Below, piece by piece: positions 33,726-40,945 of a stretch of 64,000 bases of DNA (position 1 is its first letter; the number at the start of each line of letters is the position of its first letter). Position numbers and translations under genes: made by a program. Below the pieces are notes generated by a model. The model made no database searches. It worked only from the letters and a program-made list of their open reading frames with translations, and had not been told where the DNA came from. The DNA is from Chitinophagaceae bacterium (GTDB lineage Bacteria; Bacteroidota; Bacteroidia; Chitinophagales; Chitinophagaceae). Where the stretch lies: NCBI GenBank assembly GCA_947457465.1, contig CANGWB010000005.1:11829-75828 (forward strand), written 5' to 3'.

Positions 33726-34030
33726 TGGGCATTTTATCCTGGCTCGGTTTTGGAAACAACGGCCTTAAAAAAGCGCTGGAAGCAGGCGCCACCATTGTTG
33801 ATGTACGAACCCCTCATGAGTTCGATCAAGGAAAAATCCCCGGGTCGATCAATATCCCGGTCGATAGACTATCCAGTCAGATCAACAAACTTAAATCGAT
33901 AGACACGCCTATCGTCGTTTGCTGCGCCTCGGGCATGCGGGCCGGAATGGCAAAGTCGGTTTTGAAAAAAGCCGGCATCAAGGACGTGTACAACGGCGGT
34001 GGTTGGCAATCCCTGATGCAGAAATTATAA
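33725..34030 (+). CDS. Rhodanese-like domain protein
   Basis: IVDVRTP.EF..G.IPGSINIP, CCASGMRA active-site loop. Confidence 0.9.
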   Translation: MGILSWLGFGNNGLKKALEAGATIVDVRTPHEFDQGKIPGSINIPVDRLSSQINKLKSIDTPIVVCCASGMRAGMAKSVLKKAGIKDVYNGGGWQSLMQKL

Positions 34031-34483
34031 TGCTTGGTCTTTTTTCTCCGATCGGTCAGTGACCATATCATAGAAGATATTGGAGCGTTCCAGCTCCTCG
34101 ATATCACTTAGCTCCAATTCAATCGCCTTGGTACTCTGTGTGATCTCTACCAGTGATAAGATCAGCGAAGCGATCAGGGACAGTAAGCTTATGGCAAAGA
34201 TCCATTCTGCTGCGTCCAACGCTTCCCGATAAAGTGCGTACATACAGGCGACACAGCCCAGAAAACTCAGGATGCCCAATGCCTGCATGTAACGGATCAG
34301 ATTGATCCGTCTACGCAAACTAGCGATCTGAGCAAGTAGAGTTGGATGCACCTTTCCCTTCTTGTATTCTTCATGTAAGCGTCGCACCAGATTCGCCAGC
34401 GCCAGAAACCGGTTGGTATACGCCAGCATCAGCAACGTGATGCCTGGGAACAATAAAGCAGGGGTATTGAGGTTGATGTCCAT
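34025..34483 (-). CDS. DUF2721 family membrane protein
   Basis: TPALLFPGITLLMLAYTNRFLALA..VR.LH...QI..LRRR..LIR.MQ. Confidence 0.85.
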   Translation of the reverse strand: MDINLNTPALLFPGITLLMLAYTNRFLALANLVRRLHEEYKKGKVHPTLLAQIASLRRRINLIRYMQALGILSFLGCVACMYALYREALDAAEWIFAISLLSLIASLILSLVEITQSTKAIELELSDIEELERSNIFYDMVTDRSEKKDQAL

Positions 34484-34509: not shown

Positions 34510-36924
34510 CTATCTCGATATCCGGATCGGAACGATCAGCTTGATGTATGCATTGCGACCCTGATTGAATACTCCTACCCGGCCATTGATGGGATTCTCA
34601 TCTGTGTACTTCAACCGACTGAGGTGATTCTGCCAAGCCACATCGAATAAGTTAGTGATACCTGCATGCCAGCTGAACTGAATCTGGTTTTTTCGGTTTA
34701 CAACATCAGATCCAAATCCCAGGTTGACCAAGGTATAACTCGCTGTTTCTGTTTCTGTGCCAAATCCACTGAAAAATCGATTTTGACGTGCATTGATATC
34801 GAGGTCGATCTTGGCATATCCCCTGCGAATATTTGCACCCCATTTTTTCAGATCAGCTCTGAATTCAGAACGCCAGCGAGGAGCCGGAATCAGCGGTAAC
34901 CGATCGCTTCCTGGGGTAGAAAAATCAACCCTTTCATCAAAACGGCCGTATACCCAAGAAAAACTGTTTTGCCAGTGCAACCAGTCGAGCGGATGTGGAT
35001 GCAGATCGAACACCAACTCAAGTCCTGCCAACTGGGCGTTTCGTTGCTCGAACTGGAAAGCCATTAGGTCCTCCCCGTCCACATTCACCAATGAATCCCC
35101 TCCGTTGGCAGATAAAAGCTTCTGATAAAAAATGAAATTGCTGATGTTGTTGTAGAAAGCGGAGAGTCCGATCTGTAAATGATCGTAGGAAAGTTCCAAT
35201 CCGGCATCGAATTGCCAGCTCCTTTCCGACAAAAGCGAAGGGATACCATATTCATATCGATTGGTACCCTCATGCGTACCATTACTGGTCAACTCAGCAA
35301 CCGTGGGGGCTCTAAACCCACGTGCAACATTGAACTTCAACGTAAAGGCAGAATCCAACTCCCAACTGTAGCCCAAGGAGGCGGAGACGTTAGAAAAGTT
35401 ACGCTTTTGGGCGACGAATTTTTGCTCCGCGCCCTCCATAGCCGCATCGCTCTCCAGACGACGGTAATCATATCGTAATCCACCGCTCAGTGTTCCCTTA
35501 TTGAAAAATCGCTGTGTATGAGCGAATAGTCCCATATCAAAGAGCCGATATTCGGGAATCAGTAATTCCTCTCCCTTATTTTTATTCTGCTGCTGCATAC
35601 CATTGGCGCCAAGTGTAGTATGCCATTCTTTTACGGATGGCAATTGCCAGTGAAGTGTATAGTTCAAGGTATTCAGGTCGAAAAACAATTCCTGCTCCGC
35701 CGGATCTTCAGGATTTCCAAATTCGATTCGCTGATTGCGTTGCCAAGCAAGATTCGCTTTTACTAAACTGCGACCAACGCTCCATTGATTATCTGATACC
35801 AATCGATCATGTATCACTTGCTGGTTGGGTATCAACGGTTTTCGACCACGAAGATCCGCTTTGGTGGCAATGCGCTCTAATGGACTTCCCCCATATAGAA
35901 TAAATGCTCCAGTTGCATCATCCCGATCGCCTTCTACCAATCCGGGTTTTTGATTAAACCGCGTAAACACCAAGTGACTGAATCCGCGAGCGCGATTGAC
36001 ACCAACTTGTCCACCGAAATTCTGTTCGGAAAAACGAGAATTCAGCACCCGCCCATCTACTCGATTACCATAATCATGCGCAGATTTCGTGGTCACATAT
36101 CCCCCCCAGTTGATTCCTTTGTGTTGACCTGACAAGCGGAGATTGGAATGCAGCAGTCCGCTATTCGACTGGAATCCATTCAACCATTGCCCTTGTATCG
36201 TTCCCTCCGGTGCAGGGGCTTGTGTGAGAAATTGCACCACACCCGCCAAAGCATCACTGCCATACATCAAAGAGGCCGGTCCTTTGACTACCTCGATACC
36301 CGTAACGGTCGCCTCATCGATTTCGATACCATGCTCATCACCCCATTGCTGTCCCTCCTGACGAACCCCATCCTGCATCACAACGATCCGGTTTGCGCCC
36401 AAACCTCGAATAATGGGCTTGGAAATAGCCGGACCGGTACTGACAGATGCCACTCCCGGTAAAACAGTCATTGCCTCCACAATATTGGTCGCTGAAGACT
36501 GTAACAACGCTTGCCTGCGCAGTACAGAAATGGCTACCGGAGTTTTTCGGATGGTGGTTGCCGACCCAACACCCGTGATGACTACTCCTGCATTCTCTGT
36601 GATATATGGCTGAAGGGAGATGTTGAAAACAGCATCTTTCTCCAATTCAATGTGTTCAACCCAAGTTGAATATCCAACGGCACTGATCTCCAGCACATGA
36701 TGGCCCGCCGGAATCTGTTCAAATAAAAACTCACCTTTTTCATTGGTGATCGCTTGTCGACGAATATCCGGCAATTGAACCGTAGCAGCTACCACGATTT
36801 CACCGGTACGAGCATCGATCACCTTACCGGTTATTCGAAAGGCAGGCGGAACAACCGTAGCAGCCGCAGAAGCCGAAACAAAAAGAAATAAAAAAGTCAG
36901 TTGCGTGAAAAGAAAGCGCATCAT
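34510..36924 (-). CDS. TonB-dependent receptor (probably metal uptake)
   Basis: Signal peptide, carboxypeptidase-regulatory-like N-domain, plug with PIIRG and QWGDEHGIEID, KGPASLMYGSDA, C-terminal barrel strands. Start at ATG 36924 or 36921. Confidence 0.92.
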   Translation of the reverse strand: MMRFLFTQLTFLFLFVSASAAATVVPPAFRITGKVIDARTGEIVVAATVQLPDIRRQAITNEKGEFLFEQIPAGHHVLEISAVGYSTWVEHIELEKDAVFNISLQPYITENAGVVITGVGSATTIRKTPVAISVLRRQALLQSSATNIVEAMTVLPGVASVSTGPAISKPIIRGLGANRIVVMQDGVRQEGQQWGDEHGIEIDEATVTGIEVVKGPASLMYGSDALAGVVQFLTQAPAPEGTIQGQWLNGFQSNSGLLHSNLRLSGQHKGINWGGYVTTKSAHDYGNRVDGRVLNSRFSEQNFGGQVGVNRARGFSHLVFTRFNQKPGLVEGDRDDATGAFILYGGSPLERIATKADLRGRKPLIPNQQVIHDRLVSDNQWSVGRSLVKANLAWQRNQRIEFGNPEDPAEQELFFDLNTLNYTLHWQLPSVKEWHTTLGANGMQQQNKNKGEELLIPEYRLFDMGLFAHTQRFFNKGTLSGGLRYDYRRLESDAAMEGAEQKFVAQKRNFSNVSASLGYSWELDSAFTLKFNVARGFRAPTVAELTSNGTHEGTNRYEYGIPSLLSERSWQFDAGLELSYDHLQIGLSAFYNNISNFIFYQKLLSANGGDSLVNVDGEDLMAFQFEQRNAQLAGLELVFDLHPHPLDWLHWQNSFSWVYGRFDERVDFSTPGSDRLPLIPAPRWRSEFRADLKKWGANIRRGYAKIDLDINARQNRFFSGFGTETETASYTLVNLGFGSDVVNRKNQIQFSWHAGITNLFDVAWQNHLSRLKYTDENPINGRVGVFNQGRNAYIKLIVPIRISR

Positions 36925-36925
36925 A

Positions 36926-36968
36926 TTTGAAACTTTGTTGCAAATATATAAATGCAACATTGTTTCAC
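36926..36968. promoter_or_regulatory. Two TGCAAC-N3-GTTGCA-like palindromes flanking and overlapping the TBDR -7 box
   Basis: TTTGAAAC-TTT-GTTGCAAA 36926-36944 and TGCAAC-ATT-GTTTCA 36953-36967; TATATTTG on the minus strand at 36948-36941. Confidence 0.65.
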
Positions 36969-36972
36969 AAAA

Positions 36973-37548
36973 TTAATCAGAGATCCGATGCCCGGCATTC
37001 ACCCAATCGGTGATCCGCTGCTTATCGATCGTAGTTAATTGGCCCCCTTGTGGCATGAAGCTGGGGGTTCCGTCGACACAACGCACTTTTATGCGCTGCC
37101 AGCCGGCGACGATACTCGCATCTGCATCGAAATTGAAATTGCCGCTGTTTCCGGCGTTCAGGTGACAGGGACCGCAATAACCCGAAACGATCTGTTTCAC
37201 CTGCGCAAATTTGGGACCGTAGTTCAATATAGTAACCTGAGCGGTATCCAAACATCCCCGGTTGTTTCGCACCGTGATCACGTATTTCCCGGGTGACAGA
37301 TTGGAAAACAGGCCGGATGACTGAAATGCGCCGTTATCCAGTTTGTAACTCACTGAATCACCAGCCGGATTGAATACTGCGATCGAACCGTTGTTTCCGG
37401 TTCCGATGGCGGGACTGGCACTGTAAATAATATCCAACTGAACCCCGGTGCATGGGTTGGGAGGTGCATCCCCCGTACAGGAGGCCATTACAGATACAAG
37501 GATCCATACGCTCGTGGTCTGCCTGAGTAGATCAATAAATCGATTCAT
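36973..37548 (-). CDS. Lipoprotein with an Ig/SprB-like repeat and a C-terminal monoheme c-type cytochrome domain
   Basis: Lipobox VMAS-C; CGPCH (CxxCH) and distal FMPQGG...L...DK..I.DWV..G; ATG 37548 overlaps the upstream stop. Confidence 0.7.
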   Translation of the reverse strand: MNRFIDLLRQTTSVWILVSVMASCTGDAPPNPCTGVQLDIIYSASPAIGTGNNGSIAVFNPAGDSVSYKLDNGAFQSSGLFSNLSPGKYVITVRNNRGCLDTAQVTILNYGPKFAQVKQIVSGYCGPCHLNAGNSGNFNFDADASIVAGWQRIKVRCVDGTPSFMPQGGQLTTIDKQRITDWVNAGHRISD

Positions 37549-39143
37549 CAACGGACTTTTAACATGGCGCGTACATGCTGATTGACTCCATTTTGGAATC
37601 GCGCATAATAGACACCCGGTGGTAATGGTTCACTATCAAACGTGACAGTATAAGTACCCGCAGCATACTCCTTGTCTACCAGATTCGTCAATACACGTCC
37701 AAGTGTATCCATGATCTGGATCAGGGTATGCCCCCCGGCTGTTCTGAACTTAATAGTGGTGGTTGTTTGGAACGGATTCGGGTAGTTGGTAACCATCACC
37801 TCAACAGGAGAAGGATTCGGAGGCATGACTCCATTACAAACCCCCGCCTTGATCAGCGGCAGACTTTGTAACTGATTGTTGATATTGGGCGGGAACAAGG
37901 AATCGACCACCGACTTATCCAAGCAAAACCATTTCTCCAATAAAGTCGCATAGATACTTCTGAAATCGTATTGCATCGGTATGTTGTCGTTCACCGTAGC
38001 GGTTGCCGGCAAGGTCGGATTAACACCCAACATGCCAGGATCTACCGACTTACCGAATAGGAACATAGGCGCAGCCGCTCCGTGATCGGTACCGGAACTG
38101 GAGTTGGACTTGATGCGTCGACCGAATTCACTGAAGGTCATTCCCATAACCCGATCCTCGATACTCAAAAACTTTAAGTCTTCCTGAAACGCCCGGATCG
38201 CATCGGAGACACGTTGAAGCAATGTAGCATGTGACCCGGTAGTGGTATCTGCGGCATTGACTTGCACAGAGTGCGTGTCAAATCCACCGAAGCTCACCAT
38301 ATAAACACGTGTTCTCAATCCGCCTTTTATCAAGCGAGCGACGATCTTGAGTTGATCGGCTAATGAATTATTCGTGGGATAAGTAAACTGAGTGGTTACA
38401 TTATTGGCAGCTGTTCGAACTGCACTGGCATAGCCCTGCGTTTGCTGGTTGACCTGACGGATGAATTTCAATTCCTTACCGGCTCGGGTATTGGGTACAG
38501 GGTCGGTTGTGCCATTGATCAGGTTGTAAAAACTAGTGGGATTGGTGATGCTCATTCCCATGTTCACCGTAGGCCCTTGCAATGTCAAGGAGGTGGTTGA
38601 ACCGATCTGGATCGCCAAGGGATCAGGCATATCATCATTTGGATAACCGACAGGAAAATCAGGATACTCGTAATTCAGGTAACGCCCGGCCCATCCGGTG
38701 TACACTTCTTGATTACTGTTGGAGCCGCTCATCCAAATATCGGTGGCCCGGAAATGGGAGAAATTCGGTTGCGGATATCCGACAGCTTGAATCAGCTTGG
38801 CTTTTCCATCGGAGAATAGTCCCTGTAAACCGGTCATCGACGGATGCAGTCCGGTTCCGGTAACGCCGGTGATCGGAAGCACTCGATTTTCCGGAATGGC
38901 CACGTTGGATCGGGCATTGAAATAACGGGAGTAATCCGCTACCGGGATCACCGTGTTCAATCCGTCGTTACCACCCGATAATTGCACGATGACTAGCACA
39001 TGATCGGTCAAGGTGGTTCCTTGCATCAGCGCTTGCACCAGCGGTGATTGAGCATTGAAGGCCTTGATCGAATAGCCATTGATCAACTCCGGCAGCATGG
39101 CCGCCGCAGGGATTGAACTATATAAAAAGTCTTTGCGTTTCAT
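37548..39143 (-). CDS. DUF1501 family protein with type A T9SS C-terminal domain
   Basis: LVIVQLSGGNDGLNT, SHFRATDIW, GWAGRYL, GGFDTH, FSEFGRR, GTDHG; C-terminal YPNPF...D.LGR...G.YY. Start moved to ATG 39143. Confidence 0.88.
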   Translation of the reverse strand: MKRKDFLYSSIPAAAMLPELINGYSIKAFNAQSPLVQALMQGTTLTDHVLVIVQLSGGNDGLNTVIPVADYSRYFNARSNVAIPENRVLPITGVTGTGLHPSMTGLQGLFSDGKAKLIQAVGYPQPNFSHFRATDIWMSGSNSNQEVYTGWAGRYLNYEYPDFPVGYPNDDMPDPLAIQIGSTTSLTLQGPTVNMGMSITNPTSFYNLINGTTDPVPNTRAGKELKFIRQVNQQTQGYASAVRTAANNVTTQFTYPTNNSLADQLKIVARLIKGGLRTRVYMVSFGGFDTHSVQVNAADTTTGSHATLLQRVSDAIRAFQEDLKFLSIEDRVMGMTFSEFGRRIKSNSSSGTDHGAAAPMFLFGKSVDPGMLGVNPTLPATATVNDNIPMQYDFRSIYATLLEKWFCLDKSVVDSLFPPNINNQLQSLPLIKAGVCNGVMPPNPSPVEVMVTNYPNPFQTTTTIKFRTAGGHTLIQIMDTLGRVLTNLVDKEYAAGTYTVTFDSEPLPPGVYYARFQNGVNQHVRAMLKVR

Positions 39144-39163
39144 AAGTTGCAGTTGACGAAGGC

Positions 39164-40828
39164 TTAGATGAGTTGATATTCGGCCAGGTTGTACAAATAC
39201 TTGAACAGATTCATGAGACGAGTATTGACCGTATTGAAATTCGCAGTGGTCGGATTGGCAACGTAGGCCATCCAGGCATTGGTCCAGTAGTAATCCCACT
39301 GTTGCCCTGTCAATAGGATCTGTGTTTTGATCTGTGCCTTACTCGAAGCCGACAATGAATTGCGGAAAAAACGTGTCACGGCTTCATCGATCAAATCATT
39401 AGGATTTCCCGGATTGAAAAATGTTTGCGCGATTGCCACACAATCGAATCGAACCCTGACCCCGTTGACCAAATAACCTGTATTGATCATCGTATCAGTG
39501 AACTGATTTCGCTTGGGCAGCGAATCGGCGTTGATCCAGATTTCATGGAATAGAGGTTCCTGGTAGTATGCCGGCATACCGGATACATTGGGTGGATCAT
39601 GCAAATTCATCCCCATGTTCGTCATCCAGCTGTAGAATGTATTCCACATCCCGTAATTGGCGAGGTAATTGGACGGATCCGGAAACACCGTGTTCATTTC
39701 CCGAATCGCACCGATCACCTGATCGGCCGGATTCTTGATCACACAGCCGCGGTTCATGACGTCGAAAAAGTGTTGGCTTTGGAATAGCGCAGTCAATACC
39801 GGCTTCCATTCGTAGTTGTTATTGCGAAATATAGCAGCCAGTGGGGTGATCACATTTTGCTCAGTTGCCTCATCGATAGTATAATACACAAACCAGCGAT
39901 AGAGTTTGCGGACCAGAAACTTAGCGACCTCATTTTGCGCAAAGGTCATATTGATCAGATCGCTCAATTCCAGGTCGCCTGCTGTTGCACCGGTTCGACC
40001 GGTGATGACCGTGTTATTGAAAAAAGAGGAAAATGTTTTATTTACCGTGCTGTGTCGGGATGCGGTGAAAATAGCTTGCCAGGTTGTACCATTGATCTGC
40101 CAACCGGTTAACACTTTTGCGGCCTCTTTCACATCATTTTCAGTGTAGCGCGAATCCGGACCTTTACCGAGCGTGAACAACTCAAATAGTTCCCTTGCAT
40201 AGTTCTCGTCGGGTGCAGAGGCATTGTTCAAATAACCATTGAGGTAGCGAAGCATCATCAGATCCTTGGTGATGCTTCGTGTCAGCTCCTTGTAATTGCC
40301 CAATGCAAACTGTCGGATGAGCATTTGTTGGCGATAGGCCCAGTTAGCATTCCCCACATCGGCAGATTCATTCCCGAAGTGGTCGACTAAAAACATGATG
40401 AACTTTTCCCGAATACTTCGGTCCTGATTGATCAGTACACCGGTCCACCATTTCTTGTATGAAGCTCTTCGTTGCGCCTGAACCGTACCATCATTATTGA
40501 TGTCATTCACCCAGGTGGTTCCCTGCGTGATATTGGCATCGGCATTTACACCGGGGGTTGTTGAGGTGGTATACTCCTTAATCGGCAAAGCCGGATCGGC
40601 TGCGGTTGGATCGAGCAACTCATTGACGGCCTGGGATAGGCTTCTTGACTTGAAGTAATCTACGTCAGCCTTTTTGGCGCCGAACATGGTTCGCTTCAAC
40701 AGATGGATCACCTCTTGTTCAGTCCAGGGACCGGTATAGGTATCAATCCCCGATAAGGTGCGGGGCGGCTTCATTTCAGGGGTAGCCACTGTTCGCCGCG
40801 AGGCGGTCAGAAATTCTCTTCTATCCAT
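39164..40828 (-). CDS. DUF1800 family protein
   Basis: HLLKRT.FG, REK..MFL.DHF, MLRYLNG, PDENYARELFELFTLG, Y.E.DV.E.AKVLTGW, PPNVSG.P.Y; adjacent to DUF1501 as usual. Confidence 0.88.
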   Translation of the reverse strand: MDRREFLTASRRTVATPEMKPPRTLSGIDTYTGPWTEQEVIHLLKRTMFGAKKADVDYFKSRSLSQAVNELLDPTAADPALPIKEYTTSTTPGVNADANITQGTTWVNDINNDGTVQAQRRASYKKWWTGVLINQDRSIREKFIMFLVDHFGNESADVGNANWAYRQQMLIRQFALGNYKELTRSITKDLMMLRYLNGYLNNASAPDENYARELFELFTLGKGPDSRYTENDVKEAAKVLTGWQINGTTWQAIFTASRHSTVNKTFSSFFNNTVITGRTGATAGDLELSDLINMTFAQNEVAKFLVRKLYRWFVYYTIDEATEQNVITPLAAIFRNNNYEWKPVLTALFQSQHFFDVMNRGCVIKNPADQVIGAIREMNTVFPDPSNYLANYGMWNTFYSWMTNMGMNLHDPPNVSGMPAYYQEPLFHEIWINADSLPKRNQFTDTMINTGYLVNGVRVRFDCVAIAQTFFNPGNPNDLIDEAVTRFFRNSLSASSKAQIKTQILLTGQQWDYYWTNAWMAYVANPTTANFNTVNTRLMNLFKYLYNLAEYQLI

Positions 40829-40851: not shown

Positions 40852-40877
40852 TAGACTGAAAGTAGAAAAAAAGTTTA
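40852..40877 (-). promoter_or_regulatory. Candidate ECF-sigma promoter for the DUF1800 operon
   Basis: TAAAC-N16-GTCTA on the minus strand about 25 nt upstream of the DUF1800 ATG; no TAnnTTTG box seen. Confidence 0.4.
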
Positions 40878-40945
40878 AAAACCTACGATACGTCCAATGA
40901 AAAAACGGTAAAATGACTGATGGTTCGTATATCTACATGTTTAGC

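Follow-up and report, generated by a model that had tools for sequence, protein, structure and literature searches.

Is a DUF1800–DUF1501–cytochrome c gene run in a Chitinophagaceae genome a single unit or a composite of neighbours?

Three tightly linked genes in the genome of a Chitinophagaceae bacterium encode a DUF1800 protein, a DUF1501 protein and a lipoprotein with a cytochrome c-like domain. Do they specify one extracytoplasmic complex, or have separate units come to lie in a row? The genes are located in a 64,000-nucleotide stretch of contig CANGWB010000005.1 (positions 11,829 to 75,828), which is called the window here. A preliminary description of this DNA had proposed a cell-surface or periplasmic metalloenzyme complex that hands electrons to the membrane-tethered cytochrome. 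Comparison with related loci points in another direction: the locus is probably a composite of three independently conserved units, made to look like one by a local inversion. The three genes and their parts are the following (coordinates refer to the window).

39164-40828, minus strand: DUF1800 gene, 554 amino acids, match to PF08811
39144-39163: intergenic gap of 20 bp between the DUF1800 and DUF1501 genes
37548-39143, minus strand: DUF1501 gene, 531 amino acids, start ATG at 39143 (MKRKDFL), match to PF07394
37572-37784, minus strand: type A C-terminal sorting domain (CTD) for secretion by the type IX system (T9SS), residues 454-524 of DUF1501, matches to PF18962 and TIGR04183
36973-37548, minus strand: lipoprotein of 191 amino acids with an immunoglobulin (Ig)-like and a cytochrome c part (lipobox, CGPCH, Met-Pro)

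The close spacing noted in the preliminary description is borne out by these coordinates. In addition to the 20-bp gap there is a TGATG overlap, in which a single A is both the last base of the DUF1501 stop codon TGA (37550-37548) and the first base of the cytochrome start codon ATG (37548-37546). The ATG at 39143 was taken as the DUF1501 start, and not the GTG farther upstream that was listed by the open reading frame (ORF) program. Since each of the three genes has hundreds of conserved homologues, they are not chance ORFs.

Orientation, occurrence and transcription of the cytochrome gene

Relatives of the cytochrome gene were surveyed with one genome per species, and the best 80 loci from 183 relatives were analysed. 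The cytochrome gene was co-directional with DUF1501 in 6 of these loci, with gaps of 2-77 bp between the two genes, and convergent in 67. Of the convergent genes, 63 were within about 300 bp of DUF1501 and four were separated from it by insertions of 1.2-3.1 kb. Five loci had no DUF pair within 8 kb, and two could not be resolved. Conservation of the operon arrangement with the cytochrome gene was thus not found among the relatives: the co-directional state is limited to the subclade of the window and one other lineage. With distant homologues as the root of the tree, the convergent arrangement was basal and dominant, and the orientation seen in the window formed one nested clade (100/100 support) plus one independent case. 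On this tree the co-directional state is derived, and the apparent operon was therefore made by inversion of the cytochrome gene in place.

The two units also differ in their occurrence. Full-length orthologues of the CTD-bearing DUF1501 protein (45-79% identity) were detected in about 50 of 121 Chitinophagaceae genomes, and the cytochrome orthologue in 7 of the 121; 7 of the about 50 pair-bearing genomes of the family carry the cytochrome. None of 20 more distant orthologous pairs had a cytochrome neighbour. In these loci the spot between DUF1501 and the receptor was empty, or was occupied by genes for a LuxR-type response regulator and a TPR histidine kinase or by an ABC ATPase gene. CxxCH genes were surveyed, as the preliminary description had proposed: among the three ORFs downstream of DUF1501 there was none in any of 41 other Bacteroidota pairs, eight CTD-bearing ones included, and no homologue of the window cytochrome was found at these 41 pairs. 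A second pair in the same genome (contig C2, 24402-27032) has no CTD on its DUF1501 protein and no cytochrome or receptor gene nearby.

The regions upstream of the genes were also compared. One feature was located in front of the DUF1800 gene.

40852-40889, minus strand: motif TAAAC-N16-GTC upstream of DUF1800, resembling an extracytoplasmic function (ECF)-type promoter, conserved in orthologous loci

Of 52 orthologous loci, 33, the window among them, had the motif (TTT)AAAC-N16/17-(A)GTC within 130 bp upstream of DUF1800, most often near position -53, and a TAnnTTTG box was absent upstream of DUF1800 in the window. The motif is a probable ECF-type promoter for the DUF operon. Among convergent (type B) loci, only 5 of 65 had it in front of the cytochrome gene. 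When all loci other than the co-directional ones were counted, a TAnnTTG box lay within 90 bp upstream of this gene in 31 of 72, compared with 14% in shuffled sequence. Together with the palindromic operator of the receptor gene (see below), these motifs suggest separate control regions for the three units: ECF-type for the pair, a housekeeping-type box for the cytochrome gene and Zur-like for the receptor.

In the window genome itself the picture is different. The DUF1800-DUF1501 junction is spanned by contigs covering 38996-39301 and 39135-39372, and the DUF1501-cytochrome junction by contigs covering 37511-37707 and 37523-37616; these are near-identical RNA contigs from two lake metatranscriptomes, which are unstranded and could include DNA. 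Terminator-like sites were looked for between the three genes and none was seen, and no TAnnTTTG (Bacteroidetes-type) box was found before the DUF1501 or the cytochrome gene. From the bridging contigs and the lack of such internal signals it follows that DUF1800, DUF1501 and the cytochrome gene are very probably carried on a single transcript in this genome.

Does the probable shared transcript reflect a shared function? If the trio made up a single redox metalloenzyme complex, extracytoplasmic or on the cell surface, the cytochrome would feed electrons to the DUF1501 site or drain them from it, and the system would be a split Bacteroidota version of the PSCyt-DUF1549/1553 plus DUF1501 modules. 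The co-directional, overlapping genes and the RNA contigs over both junctions speak for such a complex, and several further findings weigh against a composite. In its clade, 73 of the 78 resolved loci have the cytochrome gene adjoining DUF1501 on the 3' side, and this adjacency has been kept although the receptor slot was swapped at least twice. The junction present after the inversion is the tight TGATG overlap, and the gene is still conserved, which fits selected co-expression. A link between DUF1501-family and CxxCH proteins has been published for the Planctomycetes-Verrucomicrobia-Chlamydiae superphylum (Kamneva et al. 2012, PMC3542564), and modules of PSCyt1-PSCyt2-PSD1 (DUF1549/DUF1553) plus DUF1501 are described from Planctomycetes and Verrucomicrobia (PMC3542564; He et al. 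2017, PMC5615132). We could reproduce the association in the Bacteroidota, where the high-scoring DUF1501 class is preceded by a two-CxxCH protein of 750-1109 amino acids in 15 of 16 loci; two of these partners were confirmed as PSCyt1+PSCyt2+PSD1 proteins. Profile comparison with hhalign gave one local match between DUF1800 and the start of PSD1 (probability 50%, E 1.6e-4), a weak hint that DUF1800 may be homologous to PSD1/DUF1553, and a weak likeness of the cytochrome domain to PSCyt1, described in the next section.

Against the complex stand the opposite ancestral orientation and the different promoter type, the lack of a cytochrome gene at most orthologous pairs and at the second pair of the same genome, the empty result at the 41 other pairs, the persistence of the cytochrome in five genomes without the pair, and a cytochrome domain that is not of PSCyt1 type. 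The preliminary description had named a cytochrome gene unlinked in other genomes as one of the observations that would speak against its proposal. This is largely what was found, with 67 of the 78 readable loci having the gene on the opposite strand and five having no pair. We regard a complex of this kind as unlikely, and the comparative evidence supports a dedicated three-protein redox complex poorly. Judged by its distribution, the cytochrome is a captured neighbour, a recent add-on rather than an obligatory partner of the DUF pair, although in this lineage it may have been recruited functionally.

The lipoprotein and the neighbouring receptor

The product of the last gene is a lipoprotein with a haem c motif, as had been claimed. 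A lipobox (VMAS-C24) follows a hydrophobic stretch in the 191-residue protein, an assignment made on pattern evidence only. Residues 30-97 form an Ig-like (SprB/CTD-like) segment, and the haem motif CGPCH (residues 125-129, 37162-37176) and a distal Met165-Pro166 mark a class I cytochrome c-like domain. C24, C33/C99, CGPCH and Met-Pro were invariant in 20 homologues. PF13442 matched all 20 of them weakly (best E 7e-6); the window protein scored 15-18 bits, under the 27-bit cut-off. The 366 homologues of the lipoprotein were all about 190 amino acids long, and the window genome encodes a cytochrome c assembly protein (Cytochrom_C_asm).

The possibility that the cytochrome domain is a split-off PSCyt1 was considered. 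PF07635 gave no match at E <= 10 for the window protein or at E <= 1 for the 20 homologues. In hhalign the family was collinear with PSCyt1 but the alignment was weak (E 0.0026, probability 11%). A profile search of 1.84 billion representative proteins returned 493 relatives of the cytochrome family, and the best 150 of these were almost all small proteins in which the domain was C-terminal or in tandem copies. Because the Pfam model fails and the relatives do not have PSCyt1-type architectures, membership in PSCyt1 was rejected. We picture the lipoprotein as a small membrane-anchored electron carrier. Its gene ancestrally stood by itself, facing the other way from the pair and preceded by a probable housekeeping-type promoter. 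Inversion in place, in the subclade of the window, has very probably led to its being read from the transcript of the DUF operon.

Some further observations were made on relatives of this protein. Paralogous lipoproteins with one to several Ig repeats and this same cytochrome domain are encoded behind ORFs of ~190 and ~400-500 amino acids in about 18 loci (L132-L153). In L133 (5637-10784) Pfam identified an ECF sigma factor, a 442-residue OMP_b-brl_2 protein, the Ig-cytochrome, a small cytochrome c, YceI and a DUF5777 barrel. This kind of operon seems to be an envelope module, for redox or stress functions, that has not been described. Gene sizes had led us to guess that these operons encode Alternative Complex III (ActC-F), but their Pfam content differs. 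Three loci recorded as Sphingomonadales metagenome-assembled genomes (L042, L051, L064) nest in the Chitinophagaceae clade of the cytochrome tree and have the same synteny; they are probably mis-binned or mislabelled records.

The next genes in the same direction encode a TonB-dependent receptor and a small membrane protein.

36953-36967: 15-bp palindromic operator TGCAACATTGTTTCA
36928-36942: 15-bp palindromic operator TGAAACTTTGTTGCA; both palindromes lie within 36928-36967
36941-36948: receptor promoter box TATATTTG, flanked by both palindromes
34510-36924, minus strand: TonB-dependent receptor with CarboxypepD_reg, Plug and barrel (Pfam)
34025-34483, minus strand: DUF2721 membrane protein, PF11026, E 1.2e-35

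The first ATG of the receptor frame is 12 bp past the cytochrome stop; the likely true start (MMRFLF) is at 36924, 48 bp past it. No RNA contig from the lake metatranscriptomes fell on the receptor, an absence that proves nothing.

The operators follow the consensus TG(N)AAC-N3-GTT(N)CA, which is also readable as 7-1-7. Across the 2.06-Mb genome, no intergenic site matches perfectly apart from the two copies in front of the receptor, and a third perfect site is intragenic; with three perfect sites genome-wide, the idea of a global regulon was rejected. Of 67 intergenic regions between cytochrome and receptor genes, 63 contained the motif, compared with a background of 0.12 per kb (positions in related loci are 7887 in L157, 8759 in L158, 8780 in L155 and 9741/9760 in L189). 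It was seen only at promoters of receptors or of ZnuA/ZnuB, and it precedes two different receptor types, the second being about 26% identical. In a genome of the same genus and in two others the receptor is replaced behind the operator by a cassette of a small ORF, a porin, ZnuA, ABC-3 (ZnuB) and DUF2721. The best curated matches of the ZnuA/ABC-3 cassette are to the zinc system AztC/AztB, below cut-off. DUF2721 is downstream of the receptor or of the ZnuA/ZnuB cassette in most related loci. The half-site TG(N)AAC(A) is, to our knowledge, not a described Zur or Fur box; the operator is probably a lineage-specific Zur box, on which a Zur-like repressor would act.

Because ZnuA/ABC-3 cassettes sit behind the same operator, the receptor slot is read as a zinc slot. 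The receptor is probably a separate unit for the Zur-like-controlled import of zinc or a related metal. Metal regulation of the receptor, which the preliminary description had put forward, is upheld to this extent: the regulation is specific and probably by metal, as indicated by operator conservation and by the cassettes. Many relatives have a small signal-bearing ORF between the operator and the receptor or porin gene (7387-7749 in L029; 107-124 amino acids in L157, L158 and L179). The window does not have this ORF. Pfam gave no match to it; His is abundant in the copy of L029, and the L157 copy weakly matches the LIC10965 family. Its product may be a metal-binding periplasmic protein.

Could the cytochrome belong with this metal-uptake unit, reducing or handling the imported metal or haem, with the DUF pair unrelated to both? 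The cytochrome gene is divergent from the receptor gene over the shared operator region in 61 loci, and among the five full-flank genomes without a DUF pair nearby it is beside the receptor in four. There are also signs of a need for haem. Six-frame searches of the 2.06-Mb genome (estimated 100% complete) for ferrochelatase (PF00762) and ALAD/HemB (PF00490) found neither, so haem would have to be imported; the bacterium seems to be auxotrophic for haem and yet to make c-type cytochromes. Of the 121 family genomes, 37 lack ferrochelatase, as do 6 of the 7 with a cytochrome orthologue (Fisher p = 0.003, uncorrected for phylogeny). The best family matches of the receptor are haem receptors, although in NCBIfam they were all far under the cut-offs (TonB-hemin 175 bits vs 317; ZnuD 99 vs 950), and its nearest solved structures are PhuR, ZnuD and ShuA. 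On the other hand, the porin, ZnuA and ABC-3 behind the same operator point to zinc, which needs no redox step. The operator lies at the promoter on the receptor side and 110-195 bp away from the start of the cytochrome gene, and this gene has its own box; in the window it is now upstream of the operator. Moreover, six full-flank loci have the cytochrome and the DUF pair but no receptor. A role of the cytochrome in metal uptake is therefore very improbable in our estimate. The narrower idea that receptor and cytochrome form a hemophore-like haem-uptake pair is weakened by the same porin-ZnuA-ABC-3 cassette in the same slot.

A wider grouping would join the whole block (DUF1800, DUF1501-CTD, the variable middle gene, receptor and DUF2721) into a nutrient-acquisition island in which an enzyme at the surface processes an external substrate and the receptor imports the product or its metal. 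In 11 of the 20 distant loci, three times directly, and in most close loci the pair is followed by a co-directional receptor gene (with DUF2721). However, housekeeping genes (thiolase, pyrD, rsmE, dnaB) flank the block in conserved order, which looks like backbone synteny, and no receptor gene was seen near CTD-type pairs in other families of the Bacteroidota. The block also has separate promoters and operators, and an ABC-type zinc system can take the place of the receptor. We hold a functional island to be improbable.

Fold, export and possible role of the DUF1800–DUF1501 pair

DUF1800 and DUF1501 form a self-contained two-gene module. In agreement with the claim that the pair is widespread and has no assigned function, 181 of the 401 Bacteroidota genomes sampled had a DUF1501 match, and the literature on the two families yielded genetic association papers only, with no function found. 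In 39 of 40 fetched Bacteroidota loci the gene directly upstream of DUF1501, in the same orientation, was DUF1800. The diversity of DUF1800 was drawn from genome loci, the homologues retrieved directly being relatives of at least 73% identity only. Por_Secre_tail was present on 8 of 10 long DUF1501 proteins in the Bacteroidota sample, and the CTD-type DUF1501 appears recurrent across families of this phylum in loci lacking any cytochrome.

The window DUF1800 protein matched PF08811 over residues 42-517 with 290.8 bits (cut-off 26.1, E 2.7e-86). The DUF1501 protein scored 65.3 bits (cut-off 27) against PF07394 over residues 50-414; it belongs to a low-scoring, DUF1800-partnered subclass, and the PSCyt-linked class scores about 500 bits. 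Its type A CTD, reported in the preliminary description, is above both curated thresholds (PF18962 33.0 bits, cut-off 27; TIGR04183 32.7 bits, cut-off 23).

An AlphaFold2 model of DUF1501, built from a 30-sequence alignment (predicted local distance difference test, pLDDT, 84.5), has an alpha/beta core (residues ~49-420) followed by a C-terminal beta-sandwich with strands in 461-529. Foldseek matched the core to the alkaline-phosphatase superfamily (probability 1.0, E 1e-7 to 1e-5), with hits to S1 sulfatases, choline sulfatase, phosphonate monoester hydrolase, LtaS-type enzymes and alkaline phosphatase. By sequence, the PDB match to a sulfatase had an E of only 0.068. An N-terminal Asp and a late Asp-His pair are typical of metal sites in this superfamily. 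The invariant residues of DUF1501 (D60, S129-H130, R154, D289, H291, R342, N347 and D353-H354) seem to fit its metal-ligand and nucleophile pattern, the Ser129-His130 dyad being within FSHFRATD. The formylglycine motif Cys/Ser-x-Pro-x-Arg was looked for in the DUF1501 alignment and was absent. The model of DUF1800 was all-alpha (pLDDT 82.7, predicted template modelling score 0.85), and no relative of solved structure was found for it by PDB sequence search or by Foldseek (best E 0.44). Of the proposals made beforehand, that of a metalloenzyme is supported for DUF1501 by the sulfatase-like fold and by the invariant Asp, Ser-His, Asp-x-His and Asp-His residues. The structural comparison suggested together with it placed DUF1501 in a superfamily and left DUF1800 without a match.

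The N-termini of the two proteins suggest an unusual route of export. In the window, the N-terminal part of DUF1501 (39060-39143) has KRKDFL, an RK variant of the twin-arginine (Tat) motif, followed by a weak hydrophobic stretch. Orthologues in the clade of the window have RRxFL in 50 of 67 cases and RKxFL in 15 of 67, and essentially all sampled Bacteroidota DUF1501 proteins, including seven CTD-bearing ones from other families, have RRxFL and a hydrophobic stretch. The DUF1501 protein of the second pair carries an RRKEFL Tat signal and its DUF1800 partner no signal, as is the case for most sampled DUF1800 proteins. In the clade of the window 45 of 61 DUF1800 proteins start with MDRR[DE]FL followed by a charged, non-hydrophobic stretch (40790-40828 in the window). 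This start is a twin-arginine motif without a signal-peptide core and could serve in co-export, as a tag for a chaperone or for targeting. The genome encodes TatC and SprA (2411.8 bits). The combination of DUF1501 signals with a signal-less DUF1800 suggests joint Tat export, with T9SS secretion to follow.

The CTD-bearing DUF1501 proteins with canonical RRxFL are those of L103, L106, L109, L112, L113 (13588-15162), L123 and L130. A conserved His-rich stretch, LE[HD]GxxHxxxHxxWSRRxFL, directly precedes the signal in five of these forms and in the long protein of L116, in which no CTD was detected.

In the reading that we consider the most probable, DUF1501 is the catalytic subunit; it would have a metal centre formed by Asp60, Asp289/His291 and Asp353/His354 and Ser129-His130 as the nucleophile dyad, and would hydrolyse or transfer a group of the phospho- or sulfo-ester type. 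Its all-alpha partner subunit would be DUF1800, which has no solved relative. Transcription of the pair probably starts at the conserved ECF-type promoter. Folding and assembly of the pair probably take place in the cytoplasm, and Tat would then export it on the DUF1501 signal with DUF1800 hitch-hiking, after which the type A CTD would hand DUF1501 to the T9SS for surface display or release. The receptor would act separately, as a Zur-like-regulated importer of zinc or another metal.

A bolder version holds that a cofactor-loaded DUF1800-DUF1501 heterodimer is exported folded by Tat and then, in a recurrent Bacteroidota subfamily, passed to the T9SS by way of the DUF1501 CTD, and that the subclade of the window has also recruited a dedicated monohaem lipoprotein. 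We think this distinctly unlikely as a whole. If true, it would be the first Tat-to-T9SS route, with a piggy-back cargo; it would also be an independent repeat of the Planctomycetes pairing of DUF1501 with a cytochrome, and would imply redox-coupled chemistry of DUF1501 enzymes on an alkaline-phosphatase scaffold.

DUF1800/DUF1501 is among the more widespread exported pairs without an assigned function and is present in many other phyla. The locus does not solve this function but narrows the problem, in that the cytochrome lead is removed. The subfamily that combines twin-arginine signals with a T9SS domain predicts a cell-surface location, which is genetically testable in cultivable Bacteroidota and, if confirmed, would extend the accepted Sec-only entry of T9SS cargo. 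The probable ECF-sigma-dependent promoter offers a handle on the conditions that induce the pair. Annotation of freshwater Chitinophagaceae can profit from the Zur-like operator with its swappable zinc cassettes and from the apparent haem auxotrophy.

Comparison with known systems

Closest to the pair are the DUF1800-DUF1501 units that were co-transferred with chitin synthase genes in Proteobacteria and for which no function was assigned (Goncalves et al. 2016, PMC5122149). The window pair shares with them the gene order, the tight linkage, the twin-arginine-type DUF1501, the mostly signal-less DUF1800 and matches to both Pfam families. It adds to them the type A CTD, the MDRR[DE]FL start of DUF1800, the ECF-type promoter and, in the subclade, the cytochrome gene. 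A T9SS CTD on a DUF1501 protein was not described in the literature searched.

The predicted core fold of DUF1501 matches that of the alkaline-phosphatase superfamily, as represented by structures 8di0 and 6s21 of S1 sulfatases, 6g60 of choline sulfatase, 2vqr of phosphonate monoester hydrolase, 4uop of an LtaS-type transferase and 1ali of alkaline phosphatase. Unlike these, DUF1501 has no formylglycine motif, a different spacing of the invariant Ser-His dyad and a dedicated all-alpha partner, and identity is ~10%.

The receptor has its nearest relatives in ZnuD of Neisseria (structure 4rdr), PhuR and ShuA, and its 7-1-7-type palindromes are as in boxes of the Fur family. It differs from ZnuD and the haem receptors in missing the curated cut-offs widely and in having a Bacteroidota-type N-terminal CarboxypepD_reg domain.

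With canonical type A cargo of the T9SS (PMC9251779, PMC5445135) DUF1501 shares the C-terminal beta-sandwich scoring above thresholds and a genome that encodes SprA. Such cargo is described as Sec-dependent in these papers, whereas the N-terminus of the DUF1501 subfamily is of the twin-arginine type, with an RK variant in the window copy. A literature search for Tat-dependent T9SS cargo found no paper. The combination of Tat and T9SS features recurs in the DUF1501 subfamily, and as far as its sequences indicate the novelty of the locus lies here and not in the cytochrome.

The PSCyt modules resemble the window locus in having a Tat-signal, phosphatase/sulfatase-fold protein of the DUF1501 family beside a CxxCH protein, with function unassigned. 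In the window, however, the partner of DUF1501 is DUF1800, and PSCyt2 and PSD1 gave no match at E <= 10. The cytochrome is a separate lipoprotein of 191 amino acids with a C-terminal cytochrome domain, and it is absent from most orthologous pairs. The likeness to the PSCyt modules appears real as an analogy, in the sense that the two arrangements may work alike, and not as family membership.

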